A DNA stretch of 64,000 nucleotides from an uncultured Heliobacteriaceae bacterium (GCA_964631865.1 CAZWAK010000004.1:31278-95277), one strand, 5' to 3'. Shown: positions 3,897 to 61,827, numbered from the stretch's first letter. The notes: a model not told the origin generated them from the sequence alone. Numbers and translations: made by a program.

Positions 3897-6800
3897 TCAA
3901 TCAATAATCAAAAACTCCGCCGCCGCAAATAACACCTGTGCGTATCGTTCCCACGCATTCATCACATTCGCCGCCGGATTGCGAAAGTCGCGCATTGAAT
4001 TCCAATCCTCGTTGCTGCCATCCAATCGCTTGATCGTCACGTCCCATTTGAAGCTGTTGCCGGAACCGCCTTTGCTCGCGTCGGCAATAAAATCAAGGAT
4101 GTCGCCGCGCTGCACAACAATTTCTTTTACCGCCGTTTCAGTTTTCGTCGGCACGGCTGTCCAGTTGCCAACCTTGCCCGTGCGGCTTGAAACGAGGAGG
4201 CCTTGCACGCCTTCGCATTTGCGGCAACCGTTCTCGAAGGTTTGTGCGAGCGTGCCGGTGATGATCACACGCCCATCAAACGGCGCGACCCAGCGGCGCG
4301 TCAATGCTTTCGTTTTGCCTTCGTAGGTGAAGCCGCCTTTGCTGTTCAGCCACGCAACCGACTCGCGCGGATCGCCGGGGAGCGGCGAGTTGCGCCATTC
4401 GCCCTCGAGGAACCACGCGAACTGTGTGAAGGTTTTGACGCGCTCAGCCTTGTCGTCGTATTCGCCTTGCCCGTATTGCCAGTCATCGCATTTTGCGGAT
4501 TGCGGATTGCGGATTGCGGATTGCGGAATTGATGAGTTCGCAGATGACGCAGAAACTTTTGGTGCGTTCCCCGTCTCCCCCGTGGTTGAAATAAAATCAA
4601 GTCCTAGCGCGATTTCATCGGCATTCGGCGCGCGTCCGTACAACAAGCGATACATCTTCGTGATGCGCAAGCGCGGATTTTTCTCCGCCGCGATTTCAGA
4701 CCGTTGCAGCAAGGCTTTGGCTTGTTCGATGACGAACGGGCTGTTCATCAGCAACAACGCCTGTTGCGGCACAGTCGTCAAATATCGTTGCGGGCTGTGC
4801 GCGTCGGGGCTGGCAAAATCGAAGACGCGAAAATCGTTCGGCACGAGCGCGCGATCAATGAACGCATAAATCGTGCGCCGCAGCGAATACGGCCACGCGA
4901 TGGCGCTTGCCGGTAAGCCGCCCATCGTGCGCTCCAACTTGCCGCTCGTGAATAACAGCGAATCGCGCAATTCTTCAAAATCCAAGCGCCGCCGATTCAT
5001 CCGCCACAGCCATTTGTTTTCGGGATCGAGGGAGTTTGGATTGTGGAGTGCGGAGTGCGGAGTGTACGAAGACGACTGTTGATAGGCGCGCGACAGCATC
5101 AGCGTGCGATGGAGCTTTTTGATTGACCAGCCGTTCGCCATGAAATCATTTGCCAAATAATCCAGCAATTCGGGATGTGTTGGCGCGTCGCCGCGTGTGC
5201 CGAAATCGCTCGGCGTGCGCACTAAGCCGTGCCCGAAATGACGTGCCCACACGCGATTCACGAGCACGCGCGCGGTCAGCGGATTATTTTTATCCGCGAT
5301 GGCTTGGGCGAGTTCCAAGCGTCCGCTGCCCTGCGTGAAGCGTGGGCGCTTTTCTCCGGCGAGGATCAGCAGAAATTGCGGAGGCGCTTCATCGCCTTTA
5401 TTTTCGGGCTTGCCGCGCAGAAAGACGTGGCCGGGCTTCGGCTCAGGAACGTCTTCGAGAGCTTGCGCGCGCGGTGGTGCGCCGCGATAGGCTTGGCGCA
5501 AACGCAGGCTTTCGAGCGGGGTGCGTTTGCCGTCTTCGTTTTGCTTGTCCACCGAAACGCGCACGTGGTCGTAATCGCTGAACGGAAAGTTAAGCGGCGA
5601 ATCGGTGCCGTGCAGAATTTGTCGCAACGCCTCTTCGTTCGCATCCTTCAACGGTTCCGCTTTGTCGTATTTGGCGAGCAGCTTCCCGTACGTTTCCGAC
5701 AGGTCTGTCAGCGAACCCGGCGCGTCTTGGAAGGCTTGCGCGACGAGCGGATGCAACTTGCCTACATCAATCGCAGCCAATGTTGACGCGGCTTTCGTGG
5801 CAAATTCTTTTTCGGGCAGCGCGGTCAGCTTGTGCCAAATCGTCCAGACAGAATCTTCGCCTGCTTTCTGCAAATACGCGCGCCAACGTTTCAGCAGGTA
5901 AGCGTTGTAATCTTTTTCGCGCGCGAATTTTTCGATGTCTTCGTCTTTCGTTAGCGCGCGTGCCTCGTAGACGCTGCGCAAACTTTTCGCTACTTCGGGC
6001 GCACTGCGATACAACTCTTTGAGCTTGGGAAAACGGTTTTCGCGCAGCTTGGCGACTTCGGCTTCGACCTTTTTCTCTTCCGCTTTCATCTCGTCGTCCC
6101 ACTTCGTCAGATCGGCTTTCGGATCGAGCAGCGGCAAGGGTTTCGGCTCGCGCGAGTTATTGAAGATCGTGTAGAGCGCGTAATAATCCTTCGTCGGAAT
6201 TGGATCGAATTTGTGATTGTGGCAGCGCGCGCAACTCACCGTCAGCCCCAGCAACCCGCGCGTCACGACATCAATCTTGTCGTCAATCTTTTCGTGCAAG
6301 TTCACGCCCAAACCGCCACGACTCAACGTTACAAAACCGAGCGCCGCCAAATTGCGCGGATCGTTGTTCGGCAATTTGTCCGCCGCGAGTTGTTGCACGA
6401 TGTATTGTTCGTAGGGCAAGTCCTCATTGAACGCGCGAATGACCCAATCGCGGTACGTGTACGCATAGGGAAACCACCCTTGTGTATTGCGTCCGGCGTC
6501 CACCATGCCGAGCGTGTCCGAATAGCGCGCGACATCGAGCCAATGCCGTCCCCAACGTTCACCATACGCGGGCGAGGCGAGCAAACGATCTACAACCTTC
6601 GCAAACGCCGCGGGCGATTTGTCGGCGAGGAAGGCTGCGACTTCTTCGGGGGTGGGCGGCAAGCCCGTCAAATCGAACGTCGCGCGCCGCAACAACGTGC
6701 GTTTGTCGGCGGGCGCATTGAAGGTCAAATTGTTCGCTTCGAGTTTGGCGAGCAAAAAGGCATCTACGGCGTTGTTCGTTGGGCCTTTGACGGTGGGCGG

Positions 6801-7274
6801 CGCAGGATGGCGCACGGCTTGAAATGACCAGAAGGTTTGATGCTCCGGTTTGATGCGGTAGTCGTTTTTGACCGCAGCCGTCGCTGGCCAATGTGCGCCG
6901 TCTTTGATCCACTGCGACAGATCGGCGATTTCGTTGTCCTTGAGCTGCTTGCCGCCTTTCGGCATCTTCAGCGACTCATGCTTGACGGCTTGGATGAGCA
7001 GGCTTTTGTCAGGCTCTCCAACGATGATCGCTGCGCCGCGCTGGCCGCCTTTCAGCAAGGCTTCGCGCGAGTCTACGCGCAAGCCGCTTTTCGCCGCGTC
7101 GCTGTGGCAATCGTAGCAATTCGTCGCCAGCACAGGGCGAATGCGCGTCTCGAAAAATTCATCGCGCGCGTCGTATGTCGCAAAGGTCTTCAGCGAACCC
7201 AGCAAAATCAATAACGCACAAAAGCCCAGAATCAACGCGCCTAATTTGAGATAACGGCGAAGCATAGTGGCCAT
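3897..7274 (-). CDS. planctomycete-type cytochrome c / DUF1549 / DUF1553 (PSCyt1-PSCyt2-PSD1) protein
   Basis: CYDCH and CARCHNHKFDP heme motifs, YGERWGRHWLDVARY, NPLTARVLVNRVW, PTHPELLDYLA. Confidence 0.92.
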   Translation of the reverse strand: MATMLRRYLKLGALILGFCALLILLGSLKTFATYDARDEFFETRIRPVLATNCYDCHSDAAKSGLRVDSREALLKGGQRGAAIIVGEPDKSLLIQAVKHESLKMPKGGKQLKDNEIADLSQWIKDGAHWPATAAVKNDYRIKPEHQTFWSFQAVRHPAPPTVKGPTNNAVDAFLLAKLEANNLTFNAPADKRTLLRRATFDLTGLPPTPEEVAAFLADKSPAAFAKVVDRLLASPAYGERWGRHWLDVARYSDTLGMVDAGRNTQGWFPYAYTYRDWVIRAFNEDLPYEQYIVQQLAADKLPNNDPRNLAALGFVTLSRGGLGVNLHEKIDDKIDVVTRGLLGLTVSCARCHNHKFDPIPTKDYYALYTIFNNSREPKPLPLLDPKADLTKWDDEMKAEEKKVEAEVAKLRENRFPKLKELYRSAPEVAKSLRSVYEARALTKDEDIEKFAREKDYNAYLLKRWRAYLQKAGEDSVWTIWHKLTALPEKEFATKAASTLAAIDVGKLHPLVAQAFQDAPGSLTDLSETYGKLLAKYDKAEPLKDANEEALRQILHGTDSPLNFPFSDYDHVRVSVDKQNEDGKRTPLESLRLRQAYRGAPPRAQALEDVPEPKPGHVFLRGKPENKGDEAPPQFLLILAGEKRPRFTQGSGRLELAQAIADKNNPLTARVLVNRVWARHFGHGLVRTPSDFGTRGDAPTHPELLDYLANDFMANGWSIKKLHRTLMLSRAYQQSSSYTPHSALHNPNSLDPENKWLWRMNRRRLDFEELRDSLLFTSGKLERTMGGLPASAIAWPYSLRRTIYAFIDRALVPNDFRVFDFASPDAHSPQRYLTTVPQQALLLMNSPFVIEQAKALLQRSEIAAEKNPRLRITKMYRLLYGRAPNADEIALGLDFISTTGETGNAPKVSASSANSSIPQSAIRNPQSAKCDDWQYGQGEYDDKAERVKTFTQFAWFLEGEWRNSPLPGDPRESVAWLNSKGGFTYEGKTKALTRRWVAPFDGRVIITGTLAQTFENGCRKCEGVQGLLVSSRTGKVGNWTAVPTKTETAVKEIVVQRGDILDFIADASKGGSGNSFKWDVTIKRLDGSNEDWNSMRDFRNPAANVMNAWERYAQVLFAAAEFLIID
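4493..4586. repeat. composite in-frame repeat tract: (TTGCGGA)x5 plus two pairs of 9-mer units
   Basis: TTGCGGA x5 at 4493-4527; CGCAGATGA/CGCAGAAAC at 4539-4556; CCCCGTCTC/CCCCGTGGT at 4569-4586. Confidence 0.8.
5031..5064. repeat. degenerate heptamer tract (KTGYGGA) in frame in the DUF1553 gene
   Basis: GTTTGGA TTGTGGA GTGCGGA GTGCGGA; encodes TPHSALHNPNS. Confidence 0.65.
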
Positions 7275-7417
7275 CCTTCAGGAACGAACGAAATCGGAAC
7301 GGAAACGTGGGAGTCGCAGTGTAGCACTGACGGCCACGCTGCGACAAAATAAAATCCGCAGCAAGTTCTCACGCGAAACCCGCTGCTGCACAAAACGTGA
7401 GCGAGCGAAAAATCCGC

Positions 7418-8734
7418 TCAATAGCGCGTGCCTTGCCACAGCACTTGCACCAAGTCGGCACCGAAACGTTGGCGCTCCGCAGGCGTTGGTTGATGCCCCA
7501 GCTTCGGATGTTTGGTAATCATCTGCTCAATCAAAAACGCGGGCAATTGGCGGTCGTGCGACAAGCCTTGAATCACGGTCATTCTTCCCGGCTTGCCGAT
7601 GGTTGTGGAAGCTTCGGCCATATTTGGTTGACGTGTCGGCGCGAAGGTGGGGCGGGCGGAAAGCAACTGGAACAGGCGCTGCGTCAAGGCGGCATAACGA
7701 TTGTCGGGCGGCGCTTCGAGATATTCCGACGTTTCGGTGTTGTGCAGCGACAAGAACACATCCACACGCTGACCGCTGTCCACCCAATTGAGAATCGCGT
7801 TTCGTTGCGCCGCGATTTCCGGCATCTTCGTGGCGTCCACCGCATCCCAGTTGCGATTCAGGTCAAAGCCGTTCGCATTGAACCGCACGCCGCCGCGCGC
7901 CACGCCATCGGGATCACACAGCGGGAAGATTTTGAAGATGGCGGTTTGGCGGATGATTTCGGCTGCCGGTGTGTTCGCCAACAAAAAGCGAATTGCGCCG
8001 TCGCCCGCCCACGATGAACCGGCTTCCCAACTGTGCTGGCGAAACATCAGCCAGATCACTTTTTTCTCAACTGCGGGCACGCGCGCATCGGTGATCGTGA
8101 GCAACAACAGATCGCGGCCTTGCACCGACTTGCCGATGATTTGTTGCGCCAAGTGCGGATGTTTTTTGTATTCGTTCAGCAAGCGTTGCAGATGTTGATT
8201 CGTGTACGGCGGGACATGTGCGATCCAGAAACGATTTGTGCGCGGCGTGAGGTGCAGCCGCAAGAGCAGTGTGTCGGCTTGATATTCGACCCTTTCGAGC
8301 GGCTTCCAGTGTTGATTGTCTTCGCTGTACCAGGGCAGCGTGTCGCCCGTGACCGCGCCGCGATTCGGGTGATAGTTGTATTCGCCGGGCAAATCCACGA
8401 GATCAATCGTGAGAGCTTTGCCACGCGCGCCGTCCACGCGAAAGTAGTACCAATTCGCCTGCCGATTGCGCCCGTCCTGATCGCTTTCGCCTTTGACGCC
8501 GCAGCGAAAATGCGTTGCAGTAATTGGCTCAATCTTGCCGAGCGCGCCGCCTTCAAAATGGGTGGAGATGGAGATGGGTTTAGCGGCACTGGCAGACGAG
8601 GCGAAAAGGAAGAGAAAACAGATTTTCACCGCAGAGACGCAAAGATTCCGCCGAGGCTCGCAGAGACTTTTTTTAGGATTTCTCTGCGAAACTCTGCGCT
8701 GTCTCTGCGTCTCTGCGGTGAAAAATCGCTTCAC
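7418..8734 (-). CDS. M14 zinc carboxypeptidase family protein (secreted)
   Basis: RQHSWE (HxxE), PDGVARG, DLNRNW, LSLH motifs; signal peptide interrupted by a palindrome. Confidence 0.85.
   Translation of the reverse strand: MKRFFTAETQRQRRVSQRNPKKSLCEPRRNLCVSAVKICFLFLFASSASAAKPISISTHFEGGALGKIEPITATHFRCGVKGESDQDGRNRQANWYYFRVDGARGKALTIDLVDLPGEYNYHPNRGAVTGDTLPWYSEDNQHWKPLERVEYQADTLLLRLHLTPRTNRFWIAHVPPYTNQHLQRLLNEYKKHPHLAQQIIGKSVQGRDLLLLTITDARVPAVEKKVIWLMFRQHSWEAGSSWAGDGAIRFLLANTPAAEIIRQTAIFKIFPLCDPDGVARGGVRFNANGFDLNRNWDAVDATKMPEIAAQRNAILNWVDSGQRVDVFLSLHNTETSEYLEAPPDNRYAALTQRLFQLLSARPTFAPTRQPNMAEASTTIGKPGRMTVIQGLSHDRQLPAFLIEQMITKHPKLGHQPTPAERQRFGADLVQVLWQGTRY
8623..8724. repeat. 102-bp palindromic element with CGCAGAG/CTCTGCG repeat arms
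   Basis: perfect 19-bp terminal inverted repeat TTTTCACCGCAGAGACGCA / TGCGTCTCTGCGGTGAAAA; internal CTCTGCG units. Confidence 0.9.
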
Positions 8735-8737
8735 AAT

Positions 8738-15867: not shown

Positions 15868-15943
15868 CATTCTTCATTCTCGATTCTGGATTCTTCATTC
15901 TTGGGTAGAAGAATTGAGAATCCAGAATCGAGAATGAAGAATG
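15868..15943. repeat. heptamer-arm palindrome (ATTCTNN / NNAGAAT)
   Basis: perfect 27-bp inverted repeat 15868-15894 / 15917-15943. Confidence 0.92.
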
Positions 15944-15985
15944 AAACCAATGAGCCTTCCTTGAAAACTTATCTTTACAAAGCAC

Positions 15986-18501: not shown

Positions 18502-18651
18502 ACCAGCGGAGACTTGCTGATTCTTCCCGCAAGCCCGCATGCGACTACTCCCAACTCACCTCTCGTCACCCTCATCACTGCTTATATCGCAGGTTGCGGG
18601 GAGGATATTCCCGGCCTCTTTGAAACACGGGGAAATAGTGTAAGGAGGTTT

Positions 18652-18751
18652 CATTTCCCAGTTTCCAATTGTCATTTTTCATTTCTCCTTGGCTGCGGTC
18701 GCATCCCTAAACAATGACAAATGAAAAATCAGAAATGGAAACTGGGAAATG
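18652..18751. repeat. heptamer-arm palindrome downstream of pepA
   Basis: 16-bp terminal inverted repeat CATTTCCCAGTTTCCA/TGGAAACTGGGAAATG with 7-nt periodic arms. Confidence 0.85.
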
Positions 18752-23822: not shown

Positions 23823-23860
23823 CAATCTCAAATTTCAAATCTCAAATTTCAAATCTCAAA
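23823..23860. repeat. heptamer tandem tract (AAATYTC)x5, single arm
   Basis: CAATCTC AAATTTC AAATCTC AAATTTC AAATCTC AAA; contains the plsY stop codon. Confidence 0.85.
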
Positions 23861-24488: not shown

Positions 24489-24556
24489 GTAGTCGGTAGT
24501 CGGTAGTCGGTAGTCGGTAGTCGAAGATTCTACTGTCTACCGTCTACTGTCTACCG
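24489..24556. repeat. heptamer-arm quasi-palindrome (GTAGTCG)x5 ... (CTACYGT)x4
   Basis: read directly; includes the cinA stop codon. Confidence 0.9.
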
Positions 24557-25786: not shown

Positions 25787-25790
25787 AAAT

Positions 25791-25870
25791 CGGTTGTCGG
25801 TGGTTGGTGGTCGGTGGTCGGTTCGTGAGTTGCGGCGAGAACCGGCAACTGACAACCGGCAACCGACAAC
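25791..25870. repeat. heptamer-arm palindrome (GGTKGTC / RCAACCG)
   Basis: CGGTTGTCGGTGGTTGGTGGTCGGTGGTCGG ... CCGGCAACTGACAACCGGCAACCGACAAC. Confidence 0.85.
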
Positions 25871-39822: not shown

Positions 39823-42800
39823 ACGATACAAAGAAGTCGGTCGCCTTTACCGCGCTGCGCTGGAGCTTGCGCCGCCGCGGTGGGCGGATTATTTGGCCGA
39901 TGCTTGTGGCGGCGATGAAGCGTTGCGGCAAGAGGCCGAGTCGCTGCTCGCTTACGAGGCGCGCGGTGAAAGGTTGATTGACCAGCCTGCGATGGAGGCG
40001 GCAGCCAAAGCGATGGCTGAAGATCAGGCCGTGCCTGAAGCCCCATCCTTGATTGGGCAAAGTATTGGCCACTACGGGATTCTCTCGCTACTGGGGAAAG
40101 GCGGGATGGGCGAAGTCTGGCTGGCCGAAGACATACATCTTGGCCGCAAAGTCGCCGTCAAACTCTTGCCCGCCGAGTTCACCGCCGATGCCGACCGCCT
40201 GCGACGCTTCGCGCAGGAAGCGCACGCGGCTTCGGCGCTCAATCATCCGAACATCCTCACGATTCACGACATCGGCGTGGCCGAAGGTACGCATTACATC
40301 GTCACGGAGTACGTCGCGGGCGAGACGCTGCGCCAACGGCTGACAGGCGCGCCGGAACAGCGGATCAAGCTGGCGGAGGCGATTGAGTTGGCTGCGCAGG
40401 TGGCCGCTGCGCTCGCCGCCGCACACGAAGCCGGGATTACGCACCGCGACATCAAGCCCGAAAACGTGATGTTGCGCAACGATGGCATCGTGAAGGTGTT
40501 GGATTTCGGGCTGGCCAAACTGCTTGGGAAGGATGAAGGCGGAAGGATGAAGGATGAACCAAGCATAGACTCCCCCCTTCATCCTTCATCCCTCATCCTT
40601 CATCCTTCCACAATTCCTGGCGCAGTGATGGGCACCCCCCGCTACATGTCGCCGGAGCAGGCGCGCGGCGAGTTGGTGGATGCGCGCACGGACATCTTCA
40701 GCCTGGGCGTGATGCTTTACGAGATAATTGCGGGCCGCGCTCCGTTTGCAGGCGCAACAACAAGCGAGGTGATTGCGGCGCTCCTGCGGGACGCACCGCC
40801 GCCGCTGACCGAATATGCGCCCGATGTGCCGCCGGAGATGGGGCGTATCCTCAGCAGATCGCTCCACAAAGACCGCGACGAGCGGTATCAAACGGTCAAA
40901 GAGTTGCTGCTTGACCTGAAGGATTTGACGGAGGATCGCGCGTTTGAAGCCAGATTGGAACGCTCTGCACCACTGGACAACCATCCAACGAATGACTGGA
41001 CATTGCCGCCACCGCCAGTCGAGCCGCGTAGCAACGAGTCGGCAGTGAAACCCTGGCAACGAAAGAGCGCGTGGGGAATGACCGCCGTGTTGTTGCTGGC
41101 GGTGGTCGCAGCGTGGCGGGTCTGGCCATCGCGGCAGACGGTTGCGCCGCACGCGATCAAGGTGGCGCGTTTGACCAACGGTGGTTACATCACTAATGCA
41201 GTGCTCGCGCCCGATGGCAAATTCTTCGCTTACACCGTTCAGGATGGCGAGGTTGCGCACCTGTGGCTACGGCAAGTCGCGGGTGGCCCACCGCTCAGTC
41301 TCGTGCCAGAGCTTAAGGGACTCCTGCTGGGCCTGACCTTCGCGCCTGACGGCCAGGCGGTCTATTTCGTGACGTATGAGCGGGACACTCCGCTGGGCGC
41401 GCTCTATCGCGTGCCGACGCTGGGCGGGCCACTGACAAAAGTGCTGATGGGGATCGTTTCACCCGTCACCTTTGCGCCCGATGGCCTACACTTGGCTTTC
41501 ATCCGCCTGGATTCGGCGGGTGAAGCCACCAGCCTGGTTATCACCGATCTGACGGGCGGCAATGAACGGATTGTGCTGACGCAGAGCGGGCCGGAACTAT
41601 TGCTTGCGAACGGCCCAAGCTGGTCGCCCGATGGCAAGCAGATCGCCTGTCAACTTGAGCGCGGGCAGACACTGACCAACGTCGCGGTCTGTCGGGTGGT
41701 GGGCGTGGACGTAGCAAGCGGTGCGCAAAGGTCGCTGACCACGCAGATGTGGGATAGTTGCGCGCGACTGGTCTGGCTGCGCGATGGGAGTGGTCTGGTC
41801 ATGGTCGGCACCAAACAGGGGGAATCGGGCACGGGCGCGCGCGACGCCGTCTGGTTCATCACGCAACCGGACGGCACCATCCGCCGGATCACCACCGACC
41901 TGAGCCGCCATTTCTACCGCTCACTCAGTGTGAGTGACGACGGTCAGGCGATGCTGGTCATTCCGTTCAATCGCAGTTCGCAAATCTGGTCGGTCGCCGC
42001 GCGCGGGTCAGGCGCAAAGCTGAGTTACGCTGCCTCCAGCGCCGTGCAATTGACAACAGGTACGGGGGAAGGGCGCGGCGGGATTGTCAGTTTGGACGAT
42101 GGCAGTCTGGTTTACGCTGCGCGTACCGGCGAACATGTTGACCTCTGGCAAATGCGTAACGCCAGTAGCCCGCCGCAACAATTGACGACTGACCCGCCTT
42201 TTCTGGAAGAAGTTTCCGCGCCGTCGGATGGTCGCTATCTTGTCTTTGCTGCGAAGCGCGGCGGCTTCAGCCATCTATTCCGCGTGAACCGTAACGGCAC
42301 CAACTTGCAGCAGGTGACGAGTGGCGAGCGCCAGGAGATTGATTCGGATTGCTCGCCGGACGGGCGTTGGATTGTCTACGCTTCGCAGGCTGTCGAGCCG
42401 GGCAAGAGCGCGGAGTTCAAACTCTGGAAAATTCCGGCTGAGGGCGGCGTGCCGGTTAGCCTGACGACAGACCATAACGCCCGTACACCGCACTTTTCGC
42501 CCGACGGCCAATGGGTCTCTTATGTTTACCACGACACCCTGGGGCGCTGGCACGCAGTGGTCATACCGGCCACGGGCGGCGCGCTGGTAAAAACCTTCGC
42601 GTTGCCCCTGACGGTGGAATCGGGGATTGGCTGCCGTTGGACGCCCGATGGACAGGCGCTGACCTTTCTCGTGAAGGGCAAGGCCTTCGATAATCTCTGG
42701 CTTCAACCGTTGACTGGCAGCGCTCCGCGTCCGCTGACCGACTTCAACTCCGGCGAGATTTATAACTACACGTTTAGCCGCGACGGCCAGCAGCTTTTTC

Positions 42801-44571: not shown

Positions 44572-44577
44572 GCAAAC

Positions 44578-44687
44578 ACATTCTCAATTCTCAATTCTTC
44601 ATTCTTCATTCTTTTCCAAAGGAAAATTACTGAATCATTTTCTCTCTGGAAAGGAATGAAGAATTGAGAATGAAGAATGAAGAATGT
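44578..44687. repeat. heptamer-arm palindrome (ATTCTCA/ATTCTTC) between convergent genes
   Basis: five units per arm; same unit family as 15868-15943. Confidence 0.9.
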
Positions 44688-44697
44688 TTGTTGCTTG

Positions 44698-47681: not shown

Positions 47682-47924
47682 ATGATTCAGACACTAGAAG
47701 CCATCGTGAATGAAGCAGGCAAGATTCACTTGCTGACAGAAGTGCGTTTGAAGACCAGCCGCCGCGCTCTGGTGACGATTTTGGATGAAGCGCCGAAAAT
47801 CCCTGCCGCCCCCCAGAAAGAAAAGCTGCGCGCGGTATTCAGCAAAATGCACGCGGTAGAAATGTTTCGTAGCATTGAAGACCCAAAAATCTGGCAGAAG
47901 ACTTTACGCGATGAATGGGAATAG
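47682..47924 (+). CDS. putative antitoxin
   Basis: MIQTLEAIVNEAGKIHL...WQKTLRDEWE; overlaps the PIN gene. Confidence 0.75.
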   Translation: MIQTLEAIVNEAGKIHLLTEVRLKTSRRALVTILDEAPKIPAAPQKEKLRAVFSKMHAVEMFRSIEDPKIWQKTLRDEWE

Positions 47925-48303
47925 CGCTGTTCTCAACCGCAACACCGTCATTTATGCTTCCAAGCGAACGATTGATGTAGAGAAACTGCTCGCGGCTTAC
48001 GACAAATTTTATGTTTCTATCATCACGTATATGGAGGTCTATGCCTATGATTTTACGGATGCCGCCGAAAAGATGTTGATAGACGAGCTTTTTGCCAGTC
48101 TGGAAATCATCGAGATTACTCGCGACATTGCTGACTTGGCGATTACCTACCGCAAAAACAAACACAAAAAGATCAAGTTGCCAGACGCCATCATTTTGGC
48201 CACTACAAAATACCTGAACGCCGACTTACTGACAGATGATTACGACGATTTTCAAACGGTTGATCCGAGTGTGAAGGTTCTGAGTCTTGACGATTTTAGA
48301 TAA
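47911..48303 (+). CDS. VapC/PIN domain toxin (first acidic residue altered)
   Basis: SIITYMEV, KIKLPDAIILAT, LLTDD..DF; N-terminal VLNRN in place of the usual LD(T/S)N. Confidence 0.8.
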   Translation: MNGNSAVLNRNTVIYASKRTIDVEKLLAAYDKFYVSIITYMEVYAYDFTDAAEKMLIDELFASLEIIEITRDIADLAITYRKNKHKKIKLPDAIILATTKYLNADLLTDDYDDFQTVDPSVKVLSLDDFR

Positions 48304-53500: not shown

Positions 53501-54971
53501 GCGGCGCGGGCAGGGAAGCGGCGGGCGCAGAAGTTGTGACGGGTTCGGGCGTTGGCTCAGGCAGCGCAGTCGCGAGGTCGAAGCTTTCCGCCTCGCCTTG
53601 CGTCTCGCCCTCGGTCGGCGCAATTAACTCGGACAGACTGGGCAGCGGCAACAACTCCGGCAAGGTTTCATCGAAGGCCAGCGCGGGCCAGTTCGGTTCT
53701 TCGACGTCCACTGTCGTCGGGCATTGCGCGTCTGGCACAGCGGGAACGGCTTCCGCGTTGTCTGCTTCGACTTCGGGCGCGACGACGAACGTATCGCCTT
53801 GCACCCCGTTTTCAAGCGATGGAGGCGCGCTGGCCGCCGGTTCGGTCAGCAAATCTTCTGCGAGTTGATCGGCCAGATTGTCAATGGCGAGATCGGCTGT
53901 CGGAGTGGGCGCGCTGTCTTCTAACACATCTGGCAAGACCTGCGGCGCTTCTGCTAACGACGCCGTCTCGGTCGGCGCAGCCGCGTCCGATGCGGGCGTG
54001 AGTTGTATTTCCGGCAGCCCCGCCATCAATTCATCGGGCAGCGCGAATTCCGGTTGCAGCGGCGGCGGATAAGCGCCAAAGCTTTCTTTCAATTCTTTGG
54101 CGACGTCGTGTAAATCCACGTCGCCAATCGTCGGCGTCTCGGTCGCTTCCGGCAACGACACTGAAAAGGCAGCGTCGTTGAGTAGCGCCACCAACGGTTC
54201 TTCGGTTTCGAGCGCCGCTAATTCCGGGGGCGTCAGCGCCGCCCAGGGCGCGCGGGCTTCGGGCAGGAGATCGTCTTCGGCTTCGGTGGGCAGCAGGAAC
54301 GTTTCGCCTTTTTCTTCGTAGTCGTCCAATGCTTCGGGGTCTTCTACCGGGTCTAAGGCTGGGGGCGTGAAGGAAAAGTCGGGCAGCGCAAGCTCGTGAG
54401 GTTCTAACGCGGGAGGGGTGACGGAAATTTCCGGCAGCGCGAACTCATTGTCGGGTTGTGCTGGAGTGGTCGCTTCGGTCGGCTCGGCGGCAAGTGGTTC
54501 CAGCGGTAACAATTCTGGCAGTGCCAGTTTAGCAATAGACGATTCATCGGTTGACAGTTCACTCGTTGACAATTCGTTCGTTGACAGTTGCTCGGTTGAC
54601 AGTTCATTGGTTGACGATATAACTTCCGCCGGAATCTCCGCCAACGATTGATCCAGCAAATCGGCTAAGTCGCTGACGTTTTGGCAGAGGTCTTCCAGCA
54701 ATTCCTGCGACAAGGGCAGATTTTCTTCGCAGAGCATTTCGAGCGCGACTTCGAGTTGATAGGCGACCTCGCTGATTTGCATGAAGCCGAGCATCGAGGC
54801 CGCGCCTTTGATGATATGCGCGAAGCGAAACGCTTCGCGCAGGGCATCCAGTTGCGTCGCATCCGCCGCGAAGGACTCCAGCCCCAGCATGATTTCCGGC
54901 AAATAGCCTTTGGCTTCGCTGAAAAAGCCGACGACCACTTCCTGGTCGAGATGATGATTCATAACGGTCAT
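50589..54971 (-). CDS. cheA: ChpA/CheA-like hybrid kinase (2 Hpt, acidic linkers, HATPase, CheW, REC)
   Basis: AHIIKGAA and SHSLKGTA Hpt motifs, HLLRNAVDHGIE, DDGQG, GRGVGMDVV, LLDIEMP. Confidence 0.93.
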   Translation of the reverse strand: MTVMNHHLDQEVVVGFFSEAKGYLPEIMLGLESFAADATQLDALREAFRFAHIIKGAASMLGFMQISEVAYQLEVALEMLCEENLPLSQELLEDLCQNVSDLADLLDQSLAEIPAEVISSTNELSTEQLSTNELSTSELSTDESSIAKLALPELLPLEPLAAEPTEATTPAQPDNEFALPEISVTPPALEPHELALPDFSFTPPALDPVEDPEALDDYEEKGETFLLPTEAEDDLLPEARAPWAALTPPELAALETEEPLVALLNDAAFSVSLPEATETPTIGDVDLHDVAKELKESFGAYPPPLQPEFALPDELMAGLPEIQLTPASDAAAPTETASLAEAPQVLPDVLEDSAPTPTADLAIDNLADQLAEDLLTEPAASAPPSLENGVQGDTFVVAPEVEADNAEAVPAVPDAQCPTTVDVEEPNWPALAFDETLPELLPLPSLSELIAPTEGETQGEAESFDLATALPEPTPEPVTTSAPAASLPAPLASPVISDDMAEELMETFLLEAEEHLQNLHTSLRVLYKNPHNRELLQEVRRSSHSLKGTAAVVGLDNIMQLAHRMEDVLDLMYDGEMQLTPERTLLLMQATDALEDMSNGQVKTGEVQRLYAAFARLLAEHSAAAARAEEFTSTATPEALAEALAETGPELECAPDTTADLVFTQPAAEDTEAVAALGPVELPAVFDHAETPLEAANTAAARLPDWPQSLTESAALEEFSVPVAPMIAEPSVAPTAVVAEAIVVPSEPSVAETTVTAPTTVAEAAESAPVHVHEPEVLPPAQTGAMAQTSSQFVRVPIERLDEIVKLISEMIITRTMFEQRLADFGHQVEELQITGTRLRRASSNLESKYEASTLGGGRPSFVPNNAPSHLPAAALVAPGLVNALVTSHTHGFDDLEFDRYTEFHLVSRELVESSTDIQTLGRELNHLNSDFLSYLNRQGRVYSDLQDRLMRLRMVPLASLAPRLHRTVRTVAVQRDKDVELILEGEATALDTTALQEMTDPLLHLLRNAVDHGIEAPHVRTAKGKAPLGKITLRAFYEGSQVVLQLRDDGQGLDANRIRNRALELALITSVEAETMSQQELWALIFTPGFSTAATVSEISGRGVGMDVVQTTVQKLKGTITIDSQPDAGTTFTIRLPLTLAVTRSLMVKANGQSFAIPLDVVTQIMRLEMSKVERIGQEPVIRLGGKVYPLLMLSRLLNLRQPTDEVALRPPALLLSVEGKEVVVIVDQLMGGREVVIKTLGNHLRKIHGVMGATLMGDGEVVLILNLAELLRGTVRALPRRAAINSPTNHPGEAQGSNMVAPTPPVSAAHDLPPTDMIAPTPTPAKPKTLNQTLTVMIVDDSPSVRRVSSNMIKNIGWIPAQAKDGLDALEQLQANELPPDLILLDIEMPRMDGYQFLSSVRSLPAYRNLPVVIVSSRSSEKHRQKAFDLGATEYLVKPYQEDNVVTLIRRLVRESQQ
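54541..54615. repeat. 15-bp coding tandem repeat (STxEL pentapeptide) x5
   Basis: GTTGAC recurs every 15 nt (54550, 54565, 54580, 54595, 54610). Confidence 0.8.
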
Positions 54972-56443: not shown

Positions 56444-56511
56444 GAGTAGACGGTAGACGGTAAACGGTAGACGGTAGAAAAGAGCTACCGACTACCGACT
56501 ACCGACTACTC
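56444..56511. repeat. heptamer-arm quasi-palindrome (GTAGACG)x4 ... (CTACCGA)x3
   Basis: reverse-orientation relative of 24489-24556; fills the gap between the two MCP genes. Confidence 0.9.
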
Positions 56512-58740
56512 TTATAGACGACTGCTCCCCGGCAGTTTGAAGGACGCGACGGAAGCGCGCAGATCATCGGCCAACGAGGTCAAACCATTGATCGTGACGG
56601 CGGATTGTTGAATGCCCGTCGTCGTTTCCGTGATGATGTGCGAGATGTCGGTCATCGCTTTGGACAGCGTTTCCGAACTGTTGGTTTGTTTGCGCGACGC
56701 CTGCGAAATGCTTTGAATCAGTTCGGCCAGCCGCTCCGACACGTTTTCGATTTCGGTCAGCGATTGACCGGCCTGCAACGCCAGCTTCGAGCCTTCGACC
56801 ACTTCCTTGTTGTTTTCTTCCATCGCGGAGATGGCCTCGTTCGTGCCGGCCTGAATGGATTTGACGAGGCTGGAGATTTTGGCTGTCGCTTGCGAAGCGC
56901 GTTCGGCGAGTTGCTCGATTTCTTCGGCGACGACGGCGAATCCGCGTCCGGCTTCTCCGGCGGTCGCGGCTTGAATCGAAGCGTTGAGCGCGAGGATGGA
57001 CGTCTGGTCGGCGATTTCGTCAATGAGCTGCACGATCTCGCCGATTTCCTGCGAGCTTTCACCAAGACGGCGGATGTGGCCGGAGGTTTCCTGCACCTGC
57101 TCGCGGATGCGGTTCATGCCTTTGATCGTATCTTGCACGGCCTTCGCGCCTTGTCGTGCGTTGACGAGCGATTGTTGCGCTACTGAGGCGGACAGCACAG
57201 CGCCTTGCGAAACTTCCTGAATCGAAGTGGTCATTTCTTCGAGCGCCTGCGACGTGAGGTGAATTTGTTCGGATTGCTGTTCGGCTTTCTGCACCAGTTC
57301 ACTCGAACTCGATTGCGTCGTGGTCGCGGCGTTTGTGACCTGCACTGTCACTTCTTTCACCTGCCCGATGACGCGGCGCAACTCGACAATCATAAAGTTG
57401 AAGGAGTCGGCAATCGCGCCCGTGATGTCTTCGGTCACAGCGGCTTCGCGCGTCAGATCGCCTTCGGCCACCGTGCTCACTTCTTCGAGCAGGCGCATGA
57501 TCGAACGTTGAATCGAGTCGCGTTCGGCGCGCGACTGCAACAGACCGCGCGTGTTGTCGAGCGTCGTGTTGAAGGACGTGGCCAGCGCGCCCAATTCGTC
57601 TTGCGCGAGCACTTCGGCGCGCGCATCCACGTTGCCGAGTTCAATCTGCTTCACGAGATATGACAGCGAGTTCACCTGACTGCCGATGCCGCGCACGATA
57701 ACGAAGGCGGTGGCCAGGCTGAGGCACAATGCGACGAGCACCATCGCCAACACAAAGTTGCGGTCGTTCTTGAACCCGTTGATGCGTTTGTAGAGCAATT
57801 CTTCCAAACTGTTGCGCGAAGCGTCGTAGAGCATGACCAACCGATCCGTCGCTTTGGTGCCTTCCGCGAACACCTGTTCGGCATTGCCCGCCGTCGCGTT
57901 GAAATTCTCGCCTTTTTTGAGGAAGGCTTTGGCTTCGCGCACAGCGTCGCTGACGACTTGTTGTTGCTTGGAGGCGAGGTCGCCGCCCGTCGCGGCGTTG
58001 GCGTCGAAGGCTTTGCGCATACCGGTTTCGACGTTGCCGACAGCGGTGAGCGCGCGTGCCATTTGGAAATTCAGTTGCGATTGTTCTTGCGGCGTGATGG
58101 CTTTGCCGCTGATCGCACCAGCCATCAAGCCGCGCGCCTGGCCAAGCGCGTCTACGGCGTTGGGCAATTGCACGATGACCGCGTCCATCAAGTAGTATGT
58201 GTCGAGATCAGGGTCGAGAATCAGGTTCGATTTATCGCCGACGTGGACGATCAAATCGTTGATGCTGGTCATCAGCCGATTGTGCTGCTCAAAGACTTCC
58301 GGCGCGCTGGTCGAATTGGTCGTTTTGGCGCGCACGGCTTCCCACTCGCGCTTCAGCGCGTTGACCTTGTCCGACGATTCAAACAAAGTGCCGTAGGTCG
58401 TGCCTTCGACCGCCCGTGTATCAATGTCGCTGAGAGATTGAAACGCCGCATTGATGGCTTGTTCGTTCGCGGGCATCTGATCTTTCATGGCGCTGTTGCC
58501 GTGCAGATAGCCATTCGCCAGGCCGCGATGTTTGGCCACCTGCTCGTGCAATTTCCGCAAGGGCGGCAAATACTCCGCGCCGTAAATTTCCTTCTGCCCG
58601 AATTTAATTTCCTTGTTTCTGGCTTCGACCAATTTGTAGGTCGTATAGGCCAGCGCAGGAACTGACAACGAAGCAATGATGGTCAATTTCCATCCTAATT
58701 TTAGTTTCCCGAATACGTTGAATAACTTCAGGTGTTTCAT
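56512..58740 (-). CDS. methyl-accepting chemotaxis protein (PilJ-like) with a large periplasmic sensor
   Basis: [16 protein letters not shown] sensor motif; HAMP; [26 protein letters not shown]. Confidence 0.93.
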
Positions 58741-58957
58741 GGTCTCTCCGTGATGCGTGAGGAGCGGCGGCTCTCCGGGTTACGTTTGCGCGCGTAGCGA
58801 GATGAGAGCGTCGTGCGGCTCGTCAGCCGAGTTGCGTTTCAAGCAAGAAGTGGCTTTTCTTGCTGAGGATGAAAAGAGGTTTTTTCAGGGGGCAGCGGCT
58901 ACGGTTGGGCGTAGCGCGTGCGGCAAGCCAGATGCGTTGCCAAAGCGGAAGGCGGAG

Positions 58958-59590
58958 CTATTGCTTTAACTCCATCGAGGACAGCAGTCCTTCCAAATTC
59001 AAAACATTCAGCATCTGCCCGTCGTGATCGTAGACCCCGTGTAAATAGGGGATCAAACGATCACCCAACGAGGCTTGCGGCAGGACAATCAACTCTTCGG
59101 CCAAATTCAACATGCCTTCGATGCGATCCACCATCAGACTGGTCGTCAGATTGCGCTGCCGGTTGCGCACGACACACATGCTGCTGACTTCGGGCGTAAT
59201 CTTGTCGTGCAAATGCAGGAACGCGCCGCAATCTACGACCGAGATAATATCGCCGCGCAAATTCGTCACGCCCAGCACCCACTCCGGCACATTCGGCACG
59301 GGCGTGATACGTTGGGCTTCGCCCACTTCGAGCACTTGATTGATCGGCACGGCATAGCGCGCCTCGGCGAGCGAAAAGATAATGTATCTCTCTTGTGCGG
59401 CGACGGACGCTGTGCGTTGTCCCGCGCGCCCAAGGGTTGGTGCGTCGGCTAGCGAAGCAGTTACAGGAGGCGCGGCAGTAATGGATTGGTCTATTTCGGC
59501 AATGATCGTTTCCAGCGTCGGCGCAGGCATCTCAGTTGCAGAGACGTTACCGCTGAACGCCGGCGCGTGGTGTAGTTTTTCGTCCGTCAT
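58958..59590 (-). CDS. cheW: CheW (PilI-like) coupling protein
   Basis: ITPVPNVPEWVLGVTNLRGDIISVVD. Confidence 0.92.
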   Translation of the reverse strand: MTDEKLHHAPAFSGNVSATEMPAPTLETIIAEIDQSITAAPPVTASLADAPTLGRAGQRTASVAAQERYIIFSLAEARYAVPINQVLEVGEAQRITPVPNVPEWVLGVTNLRGDIISVVDCGAFLHLHDKITPEVSSMCVVRNRQRNLTTSLMVDRIEGMLNLAEELIVLPQASLGDRLIPYLHGVYDHDGQMLNVLNLEGLLSSMELKQ

Positions 59591-59608
59591 AAAAAGTACC
59601 CAGTTTCT

Positions 59609-59974
59609 CTACAGATGTCGGGCCACAGCAGTCAGCAATTCTGCTTCGACAAACGGTTTCGTCAAATAGGCATCTGCGCCTTGCCGCATGCCCCAGAATT
59701 TATCGCTGTCCTGATTCTTGCTGGTCAGCATAATGACCGGAATGTTTTTGGTATTGTCCGTCGTTTTCAATGTGCGGCAAATCTGAAAGCCGTTTTGGCC
59801 GGGCAAAATCACGTCCAGCACAATCAGATCGGGCTGCTCGGCGGAGGCTTTGCGCAGTGCTTCCTCGCCGTCCACCGCCGTGATGAGGCGATAGCCTTGC
59901 GTTTCCAGACAACTGGTGGCCAGTTTCATTTGAGTCGGGCTGTCATCCACGACCAGAATTTTCGCTTGAGGCAT
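59609..59974 (-). CDS. single-domain response regulator (PilH-like)
   Basis: VVDDSPT, VLDVILP..NGFQICR, DKFWGMRQGADAYLTKPF; AAGGAG RBS. Confidence 0.9.
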   Translation of the reverse strand: MPQAKILVVDDSPTQMKLATSCLETQGYRLITAVDGEEALRKASAEQPDLIVLDVILPGQNGFQICRTLKTTDNTKNIPVIMLTSKNQDSDKFWGMRQGADAYLTKPFVEAELLTAVARHL

Positions 59975-59994
59975 AAGATTACTCCTTTGGAAAG

Positions 59995-60021
59995 GTAGCG
60001 CGATTTGGCAAATCGCGTTAC
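59995..60021. repeat. REP-like hairpin
   Basis: GTAGCGCGATTTGGCAAATCGCGTTAC. Confidence 0.88.
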
Positions 60022-60054
60022 GTTCATTGTTCAGTTGCGGAGCCGTGTTGAGCA

Positions 60055-61407
60055 TTAAACGCTCTGCGCCTGTTGGCAGTGCATATCAATGAGCTGCAAC
60101 AGGCTGTCAATTTCAAATGGTTTGGTGATGTACGCGGTCGCCCCGACCATGCGCCCGCGCAGCTTGTCGAAGATGCCATCTTTGCCCGACAGCATAATGA
60201 CGGGCACGCTGCGTGTGATGGCGTTGCCGCGAATCATTTTGCAAAGCTGATAGCCGTCCATGTGCGGCATATTGATGTCGGACAAAATCAAGTCCGGCAC
60301 GACTTCTTTGAGCTTGTTCAGCGCGTCCAATCCGTTCGTGGCGGACAGCACCTGATGCCCGTATTTTTCCAACGTCATCTTCACGAGCTTGCGAATCGTC
60401 GGGCTGTCATCCACGACCAGAATCGTGTATGCGCCCGCTGCTTCTGGCGCGGAAATGGATGTGGGGTCAGCGAGCGGAGACGGTGTGTTGGTGGCGGCGG
60501 TCAACGCCTGTTCGGACAAGGCTGCCGATTCGCTGACGCGCTCCAACAAACTTTCGACCTGCGCTTTGAGGCGCGCGTCTTTGAGCTTTAGCTCCGACGC
60601 ACGGCGCAGATATTTCGCGCCCTCGTCGAGCCGATTCAAATTCAAATAACCCAGCCCCAGATGGAACAGCGTGTGGTACTCGACCTGCTCTCCGGCGGCT
60701 TCGTATTGGTCTTCGAGCCGTCGCACCGCCTCGCGCACCAACGAGAGATTGACTGCTTTGTTGTCGAGAATTTCGTCCAGACTCGTCAGCGATATGACGG
60801 CCTGACAATGCGGGCAACGCGGCATCGCGCACATCGCTTCGTATTCGCAAAGCGGACAGCACCAGCCCGAAGACGAATGCGTACTCGCAGAGGCAGACGC
60901 CGCGACAGTCGTCGGCGCGTAGGTTGGTGGTTGTACGGCAGGCCGCAATTTTTCCAGCCAGGCCTGCGCGCGTTCGTTCTGCGGGTTGATTTGCAACACG
61001 TGCGTCGTGTAGCGCGCGGCTTCGTCCACATCTTTCGCCAGCGTGGCCAGCCATAACCACGCGACTTCATTGCGCGCATCGAGTTGCGTCAGTTCCAATA
61101 ACAATTCGCGCGCTTCTTCTTTGCGATTGTGGCGCGCGGCGTGGATGCCTTCCTGCAACAGCAGTCGTTTCAAACCACTGACGGCTTGTTCCTGCTGCGG
61201 GTTGAGTTGGCAAACCCGCCGCCAGCACCGCAGGGTTTCCTGGGGCGTGACCGCCACCGAGGCCAGCCATAACCAGGCTAGTTCATTGTCCGGGTGCGTG
61301 GCCGTCACTTGTTCCAGCAACACGCGCGCGGCTTGCTTATCGCCCGACAGTGCTGAGGCAATGGCTTCTTGCAGGAGCGCTACTTTGGGATGTGCGGATG
61401 AGTTCAT
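60055..61407 (-). CDS. PilG-like response regulator with N-terminal TPRs and a zinc ribbon
   Basis: NELAWLWLA x2 TPRs; CPLC..CPHC; REC VVDDSPTIRK, LSDINMP, LSGKDGIFDKLRGRMVGA. Confidence 0.88.
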   Translation of the reverse strand: MNSSAHPKVALLQEAIASALSGDKQAARVLLEQVTATHPDNELAWLWLASVAVTPQETLRCWRRVCQLNPQQEQAVSGLKRLLLQEGIHAARHNRKEEARELLLELTQLDARNEVAWLWLATLAKDVDEAARYTTHVLQINPQNERAQAWLEKLRPAVQPPTYAPTTVAASASASTHSSSGWCCPLCEYEAMCAMPRCPHCQAVISLTSLDEILDNKAVNLSLVREAVRRLEDQYEAAGEQVEYHTLFHLGLGYLNLNRLDEGAKYLRRASELKLKDARLKAQVESLLERVSESAALSEQALTAATNTPSPLADPTSISAPEAAGAYTILVVDDSPTIRKLVKMTLEKYGHQVLSATNGLDALNKLKEVVPDLILSDINMPHMDGYQLCKMIRGNAITRSVPVIMLSGKDGIFDKLRGRMVGATAYITKPFEIDSLLQLIDMHCQQAQSV

Positions 61408-61638
61408 CGTCTACTCTTTGGCCTCTCTCTTTTGAGCTTTCTACGGGATTACCGTGGCAGGCCCGGGCAAGAGACGGGCGCAAAGACTCCGAGCGGTGCA
61501 GGGCAATTTTCGTACCACCGCTACAGGCAAGGAATTGTTAGGGTTTTGGCAGCTTTTTGCCGCAATTCGGGGCGGAGTGACATTCTCCGGCAAAGCCTAA
61601 GTACCGCGATTTGTCAGCGATTGAGGCCGGAACAGTGC

Positions 61639-61827
61639 TGCGAGCGGTAGCGCACTGGGATGAAGCTAACGAATGGGGGAGGAAAAGAGAGATTACGAAA
61701 CACACGAAATAAACAAAACATACGAAAAAGCCTCCGGTTCTCCCTCGAACTTCCGTCTCTTTCGTTCTTTTCGTGTGTTTCGTAATCTCTTCTTTCTTAG
61801 CTTCATCCCAGTGCGCTACCGCTCGCA
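61639..61827. repeat. nested palindrome: 31-bp outer inverted repeat enclosing a nonamer-arm palindrome
   Basis: TGCGAGCGGTAGCGCACTGGGATGAAGCTAA at 61639-61669 / 61797-61827; inner 22-bp inverted repeat 61688-61709 / 61769-61790 with ACGAAA 9-mers. Confidence 0.93.

Follow-up and report, generated by a model that had tools for sequence, protein, structure and literature searches.

What are the short palindromic repeats that are scattered over a stretch of 64,000 nt from an uncultured Heliobacteriaceae bacterium (GCA_964631865.1, CAZWAK010000004.1:31278-95277; "the window" denotes this whole stretch), and how did they come to lie between and within its genes? A reading of the sequence alone had described about a dozen elements with one architecture and different unit sequences, i.e. 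an arm of degenerate 7-mers or 8-9-mers, a spacer and a complementary arm, and had interpreted them as a non-autonomous mobile family, possibly the empty forms of gene cassettes. The analyses reported here support this interpretation. The window elements are probably cargo-less members of a family of insertable cassettes, the ends of which are complementary arrays of about five short units, and the cargo of which is either a four-helix-bundle protein (4HB; PF05635/TIGR02436, with arms of 7- or 8-mers) or a GxxExxY protein (with arms of 9-10-mers). A cassette is called "loaded" when a 4HB or GxxExxY gene lies between complementary repeat arms, and "empty" when there is no gene. The genome that holds the window, an 8.36-Mb assembly of 377 contigs, is denoted G000, its contigs have C-numbers (e.g. 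C13 and C20), and its relatives are G001 etc.; window elements are named by their start position (e.g. E15868 and E44579).

Loaded and empty cassettes

Tandem arrays in the window were called with Tandem Repeats Finder (TRF) and by direct reading of the sequence. Ten fold-backs and three single arms (at 4493, 5031 and 23824) were found, at every site named in the sequence-only reading (Table 1). The fold-backs have an arm of about 4-5 tandem units, a short spacer and a complementary arm; the units are 7-mers, with 8-10-mers at 8623, 26410 and 61688, and about two of seven unit positions are variable, e.g. GTAGNCR, RATTKGA and NATTCTN. E8623 and E26410 have a poor TRF score or none, yet both are readable by eye and by hairpin folding. 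When folded as single-stranded DNA, all ten fold-backs form a long stem from their complementary terminal sequences, with z-scores of −3.5 to −11.0 relative to 200 shuffles each, and not one shuffle was as good for any element. The loops are 6-40 nt long, and none of the 13 elements contains an open reading frame (ORF), so that none of them encodes an S23p/PF05635 protein. All of them are located in or between protein genes, none in rRNA. A Pfam scan of 49 window ORFs gave no match to transposase or integrase families, and for this set the earlier statement that transposases are absent is correct.

Genes between matching arms were found elsewhere in the genome. The sequence-only reading had suggested that similar arms flank TIGR02436 and GxxExxY genes in other genomes, and the same arrangement is present in G000, so that an associated cargo family does exist. 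G000 has ten TIGR02436 matches, nine of which are bracketed by complementary arms (7-mers, and 8-mers in one case); the tenth is accompanied by a nonamer fold-back, on just one of its sides, and two of the ten genes are broken by stop codons. The complete GxxExxY gene (TIGR04256; PF13366, PD-(D/E)XK superfamily) has complementary AATTCGTG-type 9-10-mers on both sides. Other array pairs that are 200-1,000 bp apart merely have ordinary genes in between. No Rfam family reached the gathering score in the ten 4HB loci of G000, and a location in helix 25 or 45 of the 23S rRNA was not found for them.

A link between the two forms is provided by E18649. Both of its arms are common to the cassette on C13, with about 90% identity or more and with the same non-trivial order of variant heptamers, as expected if the window elements are empty forms of cassettes. 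E18649 has a 24-nt loop where the C13 cassette, the 4HB gene of which is broken, has an interior of 437 nt. In addition, each of the top five unit families has a 4HB gene with its own unit, although this family-by-family match alone is weak evidence, because these families hold 71% of the arrays.

For comparison, we examined cassettes beyond G000. Within the genus, matched arms were found for 38 of 49 cassettes, a sample that comprised 40 of the 51 4HB matches listed for G001-G013 and nine of the ten in G000 (the C137 copy was left out). A broader sample consisted of 80 relatives of one 4HB protein from many phyla, with 57-91% identity to the query, and covered one 4HB clade; 51 of these 80 loci had matched arms (49 heptamer and two octamer), 79 had at least one adjacent array, and the median copy number was 4.7. 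The window elements are the gene-less form of this heptamer-armed 4HB cassette, with the same arms.

Loaded and empty forms with the same arms were shown to occur genome-wide, at gene junctions and in some cases in frame inside genes. Scans of G000 for further copies retrieved 1,235 period-7 arrays of at least three copies, compared with 156 arrays of period 6, 100 of period 8 and 274 of period 9; a third-order Markov genome of the same size contained 28 period-7 arrays. The copy number of the arrays has a peak at 4-5, the median arm length is 32 nt (interquartile range 27-35), and the median element length is 99 nt. Reverse-complement array pairs were found 450 times within 3 kb, 366 of them <100 bp apart, compared with nine same-strand control pairs at <100 bp. 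After merging, 369 fold-backs and 500 single arms remained, together about 53 kb, and the E61688 type was present at about 66 places. When 200 single arms were sampled, a complementary match of 12/14 or better was present within 170 nt of 82 of them (4 for reversed-arm controls), which indicates that many "single" arms are decayed fold-backs. There are about 20 unit families in total, and five of them account for 934 of 1,313 period-7 arrays (71%): CATTCTT-like (324), GGTGGTC-like (220), GAGATTT-like (155), GCGGATT-like (125) and GTAGACG-like (110). A periodic stem of six base pairs and one mismatch, as in three window elements, is a minority form (15 of 323 fold-backs), and the mismatch spacing has peaks at 7 and 14.

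The figures that relate elements to genes are based on crude longest-ORF calls with over-extended starts. Of the 369 fold-backs, 268 (73%) are outside ORFs, compared with 11.5% of random positions; 65 (18%) are in the first 240 nt of an ORF, 11 are at the 3' end of an ORF, and 25 are ORF-internal. Co-directional junctions contain 229 fold-backs (4,095 junctions), convergent junctions 68 (1,112 junctions) and divergent junctions 29 (958 junctions), so that divergent spacers are under-used. The distance from the upstream stop codon to the start of an element has a median of 5 nt (quartiles 0-19), and a few nt separate the end of an element from the next start codon. The mean RNA fold energy of 229 elements is about −46.5 kcal/mol. 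A function as intrinsic (Rho-independent) terminators was considered and rejected: runs of at least four T within 12 nt were found at 32 and 29 of the 369 elements on the two sides (8-9%), compared with 5.9% of random intergenic 12-mers, and many elements are inside operons.

G000 contains 131 ORF-internal arrays. A simple text search placed 20 of them within 25 residues past a DFG motif, and on inspection at least 12 of these 20 are in activation loops of Ser/Thr kinases, with different unit families and including E40527. A second in-frame hot spot is located past "LLDWLAVEF" in PSD1/DUF1553 proteins, to which several of the post-DFG text matches belong.

Further observations concern individual loci. 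Kinase-loop landing sites, with fold-backs or single arms, are the window site 40527-40608 and sites on contigs C142, C32, C43, C6, C70, C191, C233, C37 and others; the added peptides include MRNAE.GMRNEE...PQSAIRNPQS. The "planctomycete" gene families PSCyt, PSD1 and DUF1501 as well as sulfatases are abundant in the genome. The C20 cassette (C20:56922-57513) has a downstream arm of 12.3 copies and a duplicated upstream arm plus leader, suggesting arm expansion and partial reduplication. On C10 (28000-35000), CACGAATTA-type nonamer arrays are clustered around the GxxExxY gene, and some array pairs at distances of 160-365 nt have no ORF between them.

Repeat units, cargo proteins and turnover among relatives

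The relation between repeat unit and cargo was analysed at two levels. When unit labels were placed on a tree of 45 4HB proteins of the genus (four of the 49 cassettes had short ORFs or no unit and were dropped), 25 changes were needed; the minimum is 22, the mean after shuffling was 36, and none of 200 shuffles was as low, although near-copies and orthology inflate such tests. The six GTAGACG cassettes, i.e. two each in G000 and G010 and one each in G007 and G008, form one clade (99/97), which is the sister of a clade with GAAGTCG units. The two copies in each of G000 and G010 are at different loci, showing that gene and arms are inherited and duplicated together as a unit.

For the broad sample, 46 heptamer cassettes were compared after three near-identical congeners had been left out. 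The consensus of the upstream unit is G-W-C-A-G-R-A, in which C, A, G and the last A occur in 40-46 of the 46 cassettes. Read on the gene strand, the upstream arm is the purine-rich one in every case. The mean pairwise unit distance within the clade is 2.02, compared with 3.03 (sd 0.02) for letter-shuffled units and 3.48 to 27 units of other clades. The unit distance increases as protein identity decreases, from 0.09 at 90% or more to 1.27 at 75-90%, 1.96 at 65-75%, 2.24 at 55-65% and 2.96 below 55%. Because unconstrained DNA would be randomised at such divergences, the unit is constrained beyond pairing and in a clade-specific manner. The repeat unit was thus shown to be specific to the protein clade and to co-diverge with the protein across phyla, which is new here.

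To describe turnover, junctions in the conserved gpsA-plsY-cinA-pgpA-miaB block of 16 relatives and further window sites were compared. Gain, loss and replacement at the same site were shown in congeners, and copy number is widely variable. Of the 11 junctions and sites compared, 10 show differences between congeners; among these are empty junctions of 2-22 nt where G000 carries an element, as had been anticipated for a mobile family. The pgpA>cinA spacer illustrates replacement: G000 has GGTKGTC arms, and at least five other repeat units are present in relatives, among them GATGCTR arms (G010, G005, G003 and G008), GCGAAT 9-10-mers (G002 and G004), CACGAAT 8-10-mers (G001, G006 and G018) and TTTCGRG arms (G007 and G012). 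This spacer is only 16-18 nt long in G021 and G015, and the statement that the site is empty would also hold on the evidence of G021 alone. Insertion of a new element into an existing loop was considered as a route of replacement and is unsupported, as another array was found in the loop of only 8 of 330 fold-backs.

Most other window sites show similar differences. The E15868 junction is 174 nt long in G000, 11 nt in G010, 84 nt and repeat-free in G002, and 1,101 nt in G004, and the E18649 junction is 169 nt in G000 and 49 nt in G010. Where G000 has the five-unit arm between plsY and gpsA, G010 has a TGATG overlap and six other congeners have an 8-9-mer fold-back. The cinA>plsY spacer contains a GTAGACG-type fold-back in both G000 and G010, one arm in G002 and none in G005; unrelated inserts of 275-1,427 nt are found there in nine relatives. 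At the position of E40527, a different fold-back, of purine/pyrimidine type, is present in the G002 orthologue of the window kinase, and the E56444 site has other content in relatives, including arms of the 8-mer CTCCCCAT in G002 and G004. E8623 is an old element: it is retained at its site in G000, G005, G010 and G011, with paired changes in both arms (AGAGAC/GTCTCT vs AGCGGC/GCCGCT).

For three sites, the earlier description has to be extended. E44579 had been read as a heptamer palindrome, and the heptamer arms are there, but it has extra paired termini outside the heptamers, a feature of its whole family; its junction is 144 nt in G000 vs 22-23 nt in G010 and G002. E61688 does have the nonamer arms ascribed to it, but these are the inner part of a composite of about 200 nt. 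Its site is 249 nt long in G000 vs 119-120 nt in G010 and G005, where the element is absent; this is the site for which a base-by-base alignment of filled and empty states was obtained. Dozens of copies of the same type are present in G002, G004 and G005. The TTGCGGA-type arrays at 4493 and 5031 are indeed single arms; they are on the same strand of one ORF, encode PQSAIRNPQS-like peptides and do not pair with each other as a fold-back. The E4493 region is 159 nt long in G000 vs 105 nt in G002, the orthologue of which is 54 nt shorter and lacks the array, and at the 5031 site the G002 counterpart is 15 nt shorter, again without the array.

Separately, the cinA>plsY and miaB>pgpA junctions, occupied by fold-backs in G000, are hot spots for insertion in general: in relatives they contain inserts of 275-2,327 nt that are unrelated and have small ORFs.

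Table 1. Positions, repeat units and surroundings of the window elements, followed by two further features of the window (positions are counted from the first nucleotide of the window)
Position	Type and unit	TRF arrays	Location	Fold z-score and remarks
4493-4527	Single arm, TTGCGGA	x5.0, 100% match	Inside PSCyt/PSD1 ORF (3897-7274, minus strand)	Peptide IPQSAIRNPQSAK, residues 916-928
5031-5064	Single arm, related unit GTGCGGA/TTGTGGA	5045-5064, x2.9	PSCyt/PSD1 ORF 3897-7274	Peptide YTPHSALHNPNS, residues 737-748
8623-8722	Fold-back, 9-10-mer CGCAGAG		Between sulfatase and M14 peptidase genes	−8.98
15868-15945	Heptamer fold-back, NATTCTN	15868-15902, 15908-15945	Between rsgA and the gene upstream of rsgA	−11.0
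18649-18741	Heptamer fold-back, arm TTTCATT TCCCAGT TTCCAAT TGTCATT TTTCATT	18649-18684, 18713-18741		−3.5
23824-23860	Single arm, AATCTCA/AATTTCA	x5.3	Whole plsY>gpsA spacer	Starts within the plsY stop codon on the gene strand
24489-24556	Heptamer fold-back, GTAGTCG vs TCTACYG	24489-24523, 24529-24556	cinA>plsY spacer, occupied by the element	−6.9; stem mismatch every 7 nt
25790-25870	Heptamer fold-back, GGTKGTC	25790-25822, 25836-25870	pgpA>cinA spacer, occupied by the element	−3.9
26410-26500	Fold-back, degenerate CAAAG octamer (CAAAGGNN)	Unreported	miaB>pgpA spacer	−4.0
40527-40608	Heptamer fold-back, AGGATGA	40527-40558, 40576-40608	In frame in Ser/Thr kinase activation loop, directly past DFGLAKL	−7.0
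44572-44694	Heptamer fold-back, CATTCTT family, extra outer paired termini	44579-44613, 44654-44686	Between convergent genes	−6.4
56444-56511	Heptamer fold-back, GTAGACG vs CTACCGA, GA...TC termini	56446-56478, 56485-56509	Between two MCP genes	−6.6
61634-61836	Composite, about 200 nt; perfect 24-bp outer inverted repeat around nonamer (ACGAAACAN) arms	61695-61727, 9-mer x3.7		−7.0
47875-48303	PIN-domain gene (PF01850, 8.9e-11)			Possibly toxin of a toxin-antitoxin pair
54538-54615	15/30-nt tandem repeat (GTTGACAGTTCACTC-like), 2.6-4.4 copies		N-terminal part of CheA-like ORF	Class distinct from the heptamer elements

The empty copies also resemble each other in parts other than their arms. 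Among 296 spacers of at least 18 nt, 128 spacer-spacer matches were found, vs 2 after shuffling. Copies of the CATTCTT/CCTTCTT family have a common loop and outer paired termini beyond the heptamers, and the order of the heptamer variants differs between copies. In variant-rich families, the two arms of one copy fit each other better than they fit the arms of other copies (0.818 vs 0.720 and 0.856 vs 0.755); in uniform families this difference is slight. For the self-templating that the sequence-only reading had also proposed, this fit between the arms is the only evidence. Dispersed copies with terminal inverted repeats and pairs of filled and empty sites were therefore both found, and the proposal of a non-autonomous mobile family gains from the comparison of gain, loss and copying, in which mobility itself is inferred and not observed.

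Copy counts across relatives were made for one unit family, GTAGACG, as matches to three units with up to two mismatches in forward and reverse orientation; reversed-pattern controls gave at most 4. The values are 195 in G000, 90 in G004 and 84 in G010, 4-15 in seven congeners and 0 in four others. Outside the genus, 26 of 27 genomes have no match and G029 has one. The association of GTAGACG abundance with the presence of the cassette is suggestive only.

Metagenome contigs from four runs are short and end at elements, and no clean presence/absence variant was seen among them. A strain with 1-3% divergence (run X7 for E15868) keeps E15868 and E23824. One contig of run X4 skips 19 nt of the E18649 loop (window 18691-18711), and 1-nt indels beside the E24489 loop are present in two runs; the loops appear to vary between strains.

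Proposed mechanism and rival explanations

The 4HB proteins of G000 match PF05635 (6e-36 for the C20 protein) and TIGR02436 (2e-34), with a weak match to the diversity-generating retroelement (DGR) Avd model (9e-5). The solved structures most similar to them are 2gsc (E 1.5e-18) and 2rld, both of which were deposited with five chains. A relative from Xanthomonas is a homopentameric toroid of four-helix bundles (PMC4990558), and PF05635 is related to Avd (PMC10053308). From about five units per arm and the homopentameric structure of a solved relative, we infer that the protein binds its own arms. The toroidal 4HB pentamer would recognise its unit array with about one unit per subunit, and through this recognition it could act both on the cassette that encodes it and, in trans, on empty ones, comparable to the action of a transposase on miniature transposable elements with inverted repeats (MITEs) or of a RAYT, the tyrosine transposase associated with repetitive extragenic palindromes (REPs), on REPINs. 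The stem of about 32 bp may make an element tolerable in transcripts, probably because RNase III excises it, as it does intervening sequences (IVSs) of rRNA. A more far-reaching version is possible, though on balance doubtful: the heptamer arrays might be a read-out code for 4HB pentamers, with a 7-nt unit for each subunit and 4-5 bases of the unit under constraint, and clade and arms together might be a selfish element without a transposase, by which gene-less copies are also spread in trans.

Several observations weigh against cassettes that are moved by their cargo. No association of a transposase, integrase or recombinase with the elements was found among the 49 window ORFs, and we know of no catalytic activity of the 4HB family. 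No target-site duplication was detected: there is no direct repeat in the 15-nt flanks of 44 GTAGACG-family copies or at filled vs empty sites; the exact boundaries are uncertain. Most spacers within the GTAGACG family are unrelated to each other. G004 has many GTAGACG matches and no close cognate 4HB (the best match has 40% identity; the assembly, of 1,450 contigs, is 91% complete), so that abundance is not a clean indicator of the cassette. In G016, TIGR02436 is without a match, yet a heptamer-like fold-back is present at one of its junctions. The co-divergence of unit and protein could reflect co-inheritance and concerted evolution instead of binding, and the relatives are not independent samples. 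Finally, hairpins are equally stable in sense and antisense orientation (108 vs 120, Wilcoxon p = 0.63; G·U pairs 532 vs 572), and this lack of asymmetry gives no support to a role at the RNA level on the coding strand.

Some of these points would fit an origin of the empty copies in place. If a loaded cassette at each site had lost its gene by deletion between the arms, the copies would be immobile relics, and nothing would have to act in trans. E18649, with the arms of a cassette around a short loop, could be such a relic; two of ten 4HB genes in G000 are broken, most GTAGACG-family loops are unrelated, and G004 is array-rich without a cognate gene. However, about 370 independent cassette insertions would be required, and no spacer has a convincing match to cassette interiors (396 short matches vs 246 after shuffling, all 9-11 nt). 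The common loops and outer termini of empty copies indicate that the empty form itself has been copied, and we regard relics as unlikely. An origin by slippage would need no cassette at all: simple repeats would arise in place, with heptamers favoured by the replication machinery, as has been put forward for the heptamer excess of bacteria, and the paired ones would be kept, without being mobile, as hairpins that are useful at operon junctions for processing, insulation or stability. The excess of heptamers and a slippage hypothesis are in print, as cited in PMC4679880 and PMC4692102. Elements span the interval from stop to start codon, many congeners have a hairpin at the same junction, and the pairing of E8623 is preserved through changes on both arms. 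Against slippage, a few unit families have defined termini and common loops, one family has between 0 and 195 matches among congeners, and a specific gene family is bracketed by identical arms across phyla. The hairpin is dispensable, as the short junctions of close relatives show, and the elements have neither an enrichment of T-runs nor a strand bias. The probability of this explanation is accordingly small.

Two further explanations invoke other host or mobile functions. The elements are intergenic and palindromic, as REPs and REPINs are, and one family has GTAG at its start and CTAC at its end, which resembles the GTAG-tagged REPs described in PMC3733652. A RAYT or an IS200/IS605-type tyrosine (HUH) transposase encoded elsewhere in the genome could then mobilise them, and Y1_Tnp matches do exist at three loci of G000. 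Around these Y1 genes, no period-7 array was detected out to 1.5 kb and no fold-back out to 3 kb, i.e. the flanking repeats of RAYT genes were not found, and arms that are tandem arrays of about 32 nt with many unrelated units are unlike REPs of 20-40 bp, which makes this explanation very improbable. (The only reverse transcriptase match in G000 is broken. A Y1 gene near C34:41751-41915 is preceded by a 36-nt tandem repeat of 4.6 copies, which may be a separate repeat system.) Just as improbable, in our estimate, are sites for a host regulator, with a cold-shock or S1-type protein that binds one heptamer each and tunes downstream translation, as proposed for Beggiatoaceae TAACTGA repeats. That proposal concerns heptamer repeats ending just upstream of start codons (PMC4679880), and the elements analysed here also end a few nt ahead of start codons. 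However, about 20 unit families would need as many regulators, elements are also found between convergent genes (68) and inside ORFs (25), and the unit sequence follows the clade of the cassette protein.

Three loose ends that are decades old and unconnected in the literature searched are the excess of 7-base repeats, the inverted heptamer pairs of Xanthomonas, and the orphan "23S rRNA intervening-sequence protein" family, which is related to Avd; G000 has heptamer excess, inverted pairs and the 4HB family as one system at high copy number. If the read-out code were correct, one widespread uncharacterised protein family would explain the heptamer excess, the cyanobacterial short tandemly repeated repetitive (STRR) sequences, the Xanthomonas GGGAATC pairs and the ORF-bearing rRNA IVSs. 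If the protein binds its arms, it would be a new kind of sequence-specific nucleic-acid recognition module and part of a mobile element without a classical transposase. In practical terms, short-read assemblies are broken at the elements, operon junctions are rewritten on short time-scales, and peptides are added in frame to kinase activation loops.

Relation to known systems

Rickettsia palindromic elements (RPEs) form a single conserved sequence family; they are about 100-150 bp long and have no tandem-repeat arms. Cyanobacterial STRR heptamers have been described as direct arrays, not as fold-backs with cargo. The elements analysed here share with RPEs that palindromes are tolerated in frame in ORFs, and with STRR sequences that tandem heptamers are intergenic. 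In the open literature, which does not include subscription papers, we found no paper that treats dispersed heptamer fold-backs as gene-less 4HB cassettes, and none that links the PF05635/TIGR02436 family to repeat arms.

Inverted pairs of GGGAATC heptamers in Xanthomonas (70 in Xcc) and GGGGA(C/T)T repeats in Nostoc have been read as formers of G-quadruplexes in unusually stable regions (PMC4692102). Like the elements in G000, they are intergenic tandem heptamers, often in convergent pairs on opposite strands, with genus-specific abundance. Unlike them, the sites described here turn over quickly, and the accessible part of PMC4692102 makes no link to mobile elements or to IVS/S23p. In addition, G-rich units capable of G-quadruplex formation are not characteristic of G000: most unit families are not G-rich, and of the leading units (CATTCTT, GGTGGTC, GAGATTT, GCGGATT and GTAGACG) most are without G-runs. 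TAACTGA arrays have been described, and the heptamer excess is cited, in PMC4679880.

In Coxiella burnetii, the IVS in helix 45 of the 23S rRNA carries an ORF for S23p and tandem GACAGAT heptamers; its stem is 28 bp long, and it is excised by RNase III (PMC4990558). Loaded cassettes have the same cargo family, PF05635, as ORF-bearing IVSs, and complementary ends with a stem of about 28-32 bp are common to both. As in the Coxiella IVS, tandem heptamers in variable number are present at the end, and GACAGAT is within one or two changes of the GWCAGRA consensus of the clade that includes the GTAGACG cassettes of G000. In contrast to IVSs, the elements in G000 are located between or inside protein genes, are mostly without an ORF, and occur in hundreds of copies with about 20 unit families.

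With MITEs and the REPIN/RAYT system (PMC3733652), the elements share short, non-coding, palindromic intergenic copies alongside loaded single-gene copies with the same repeats, as well as family-specific sequences and an abundance that is widely variable between close relatives. They differ in that the cargo is not a transposase: the products of the loaded copies belong to PF05635 or PF13366, and an autonomous parent that encodes a transposase was not found among them. Furthermore, Y1 genes are not flanked by arrays, and the arms are tandem arrays instead of the unique inverted repeats of MITEs and REPINs.

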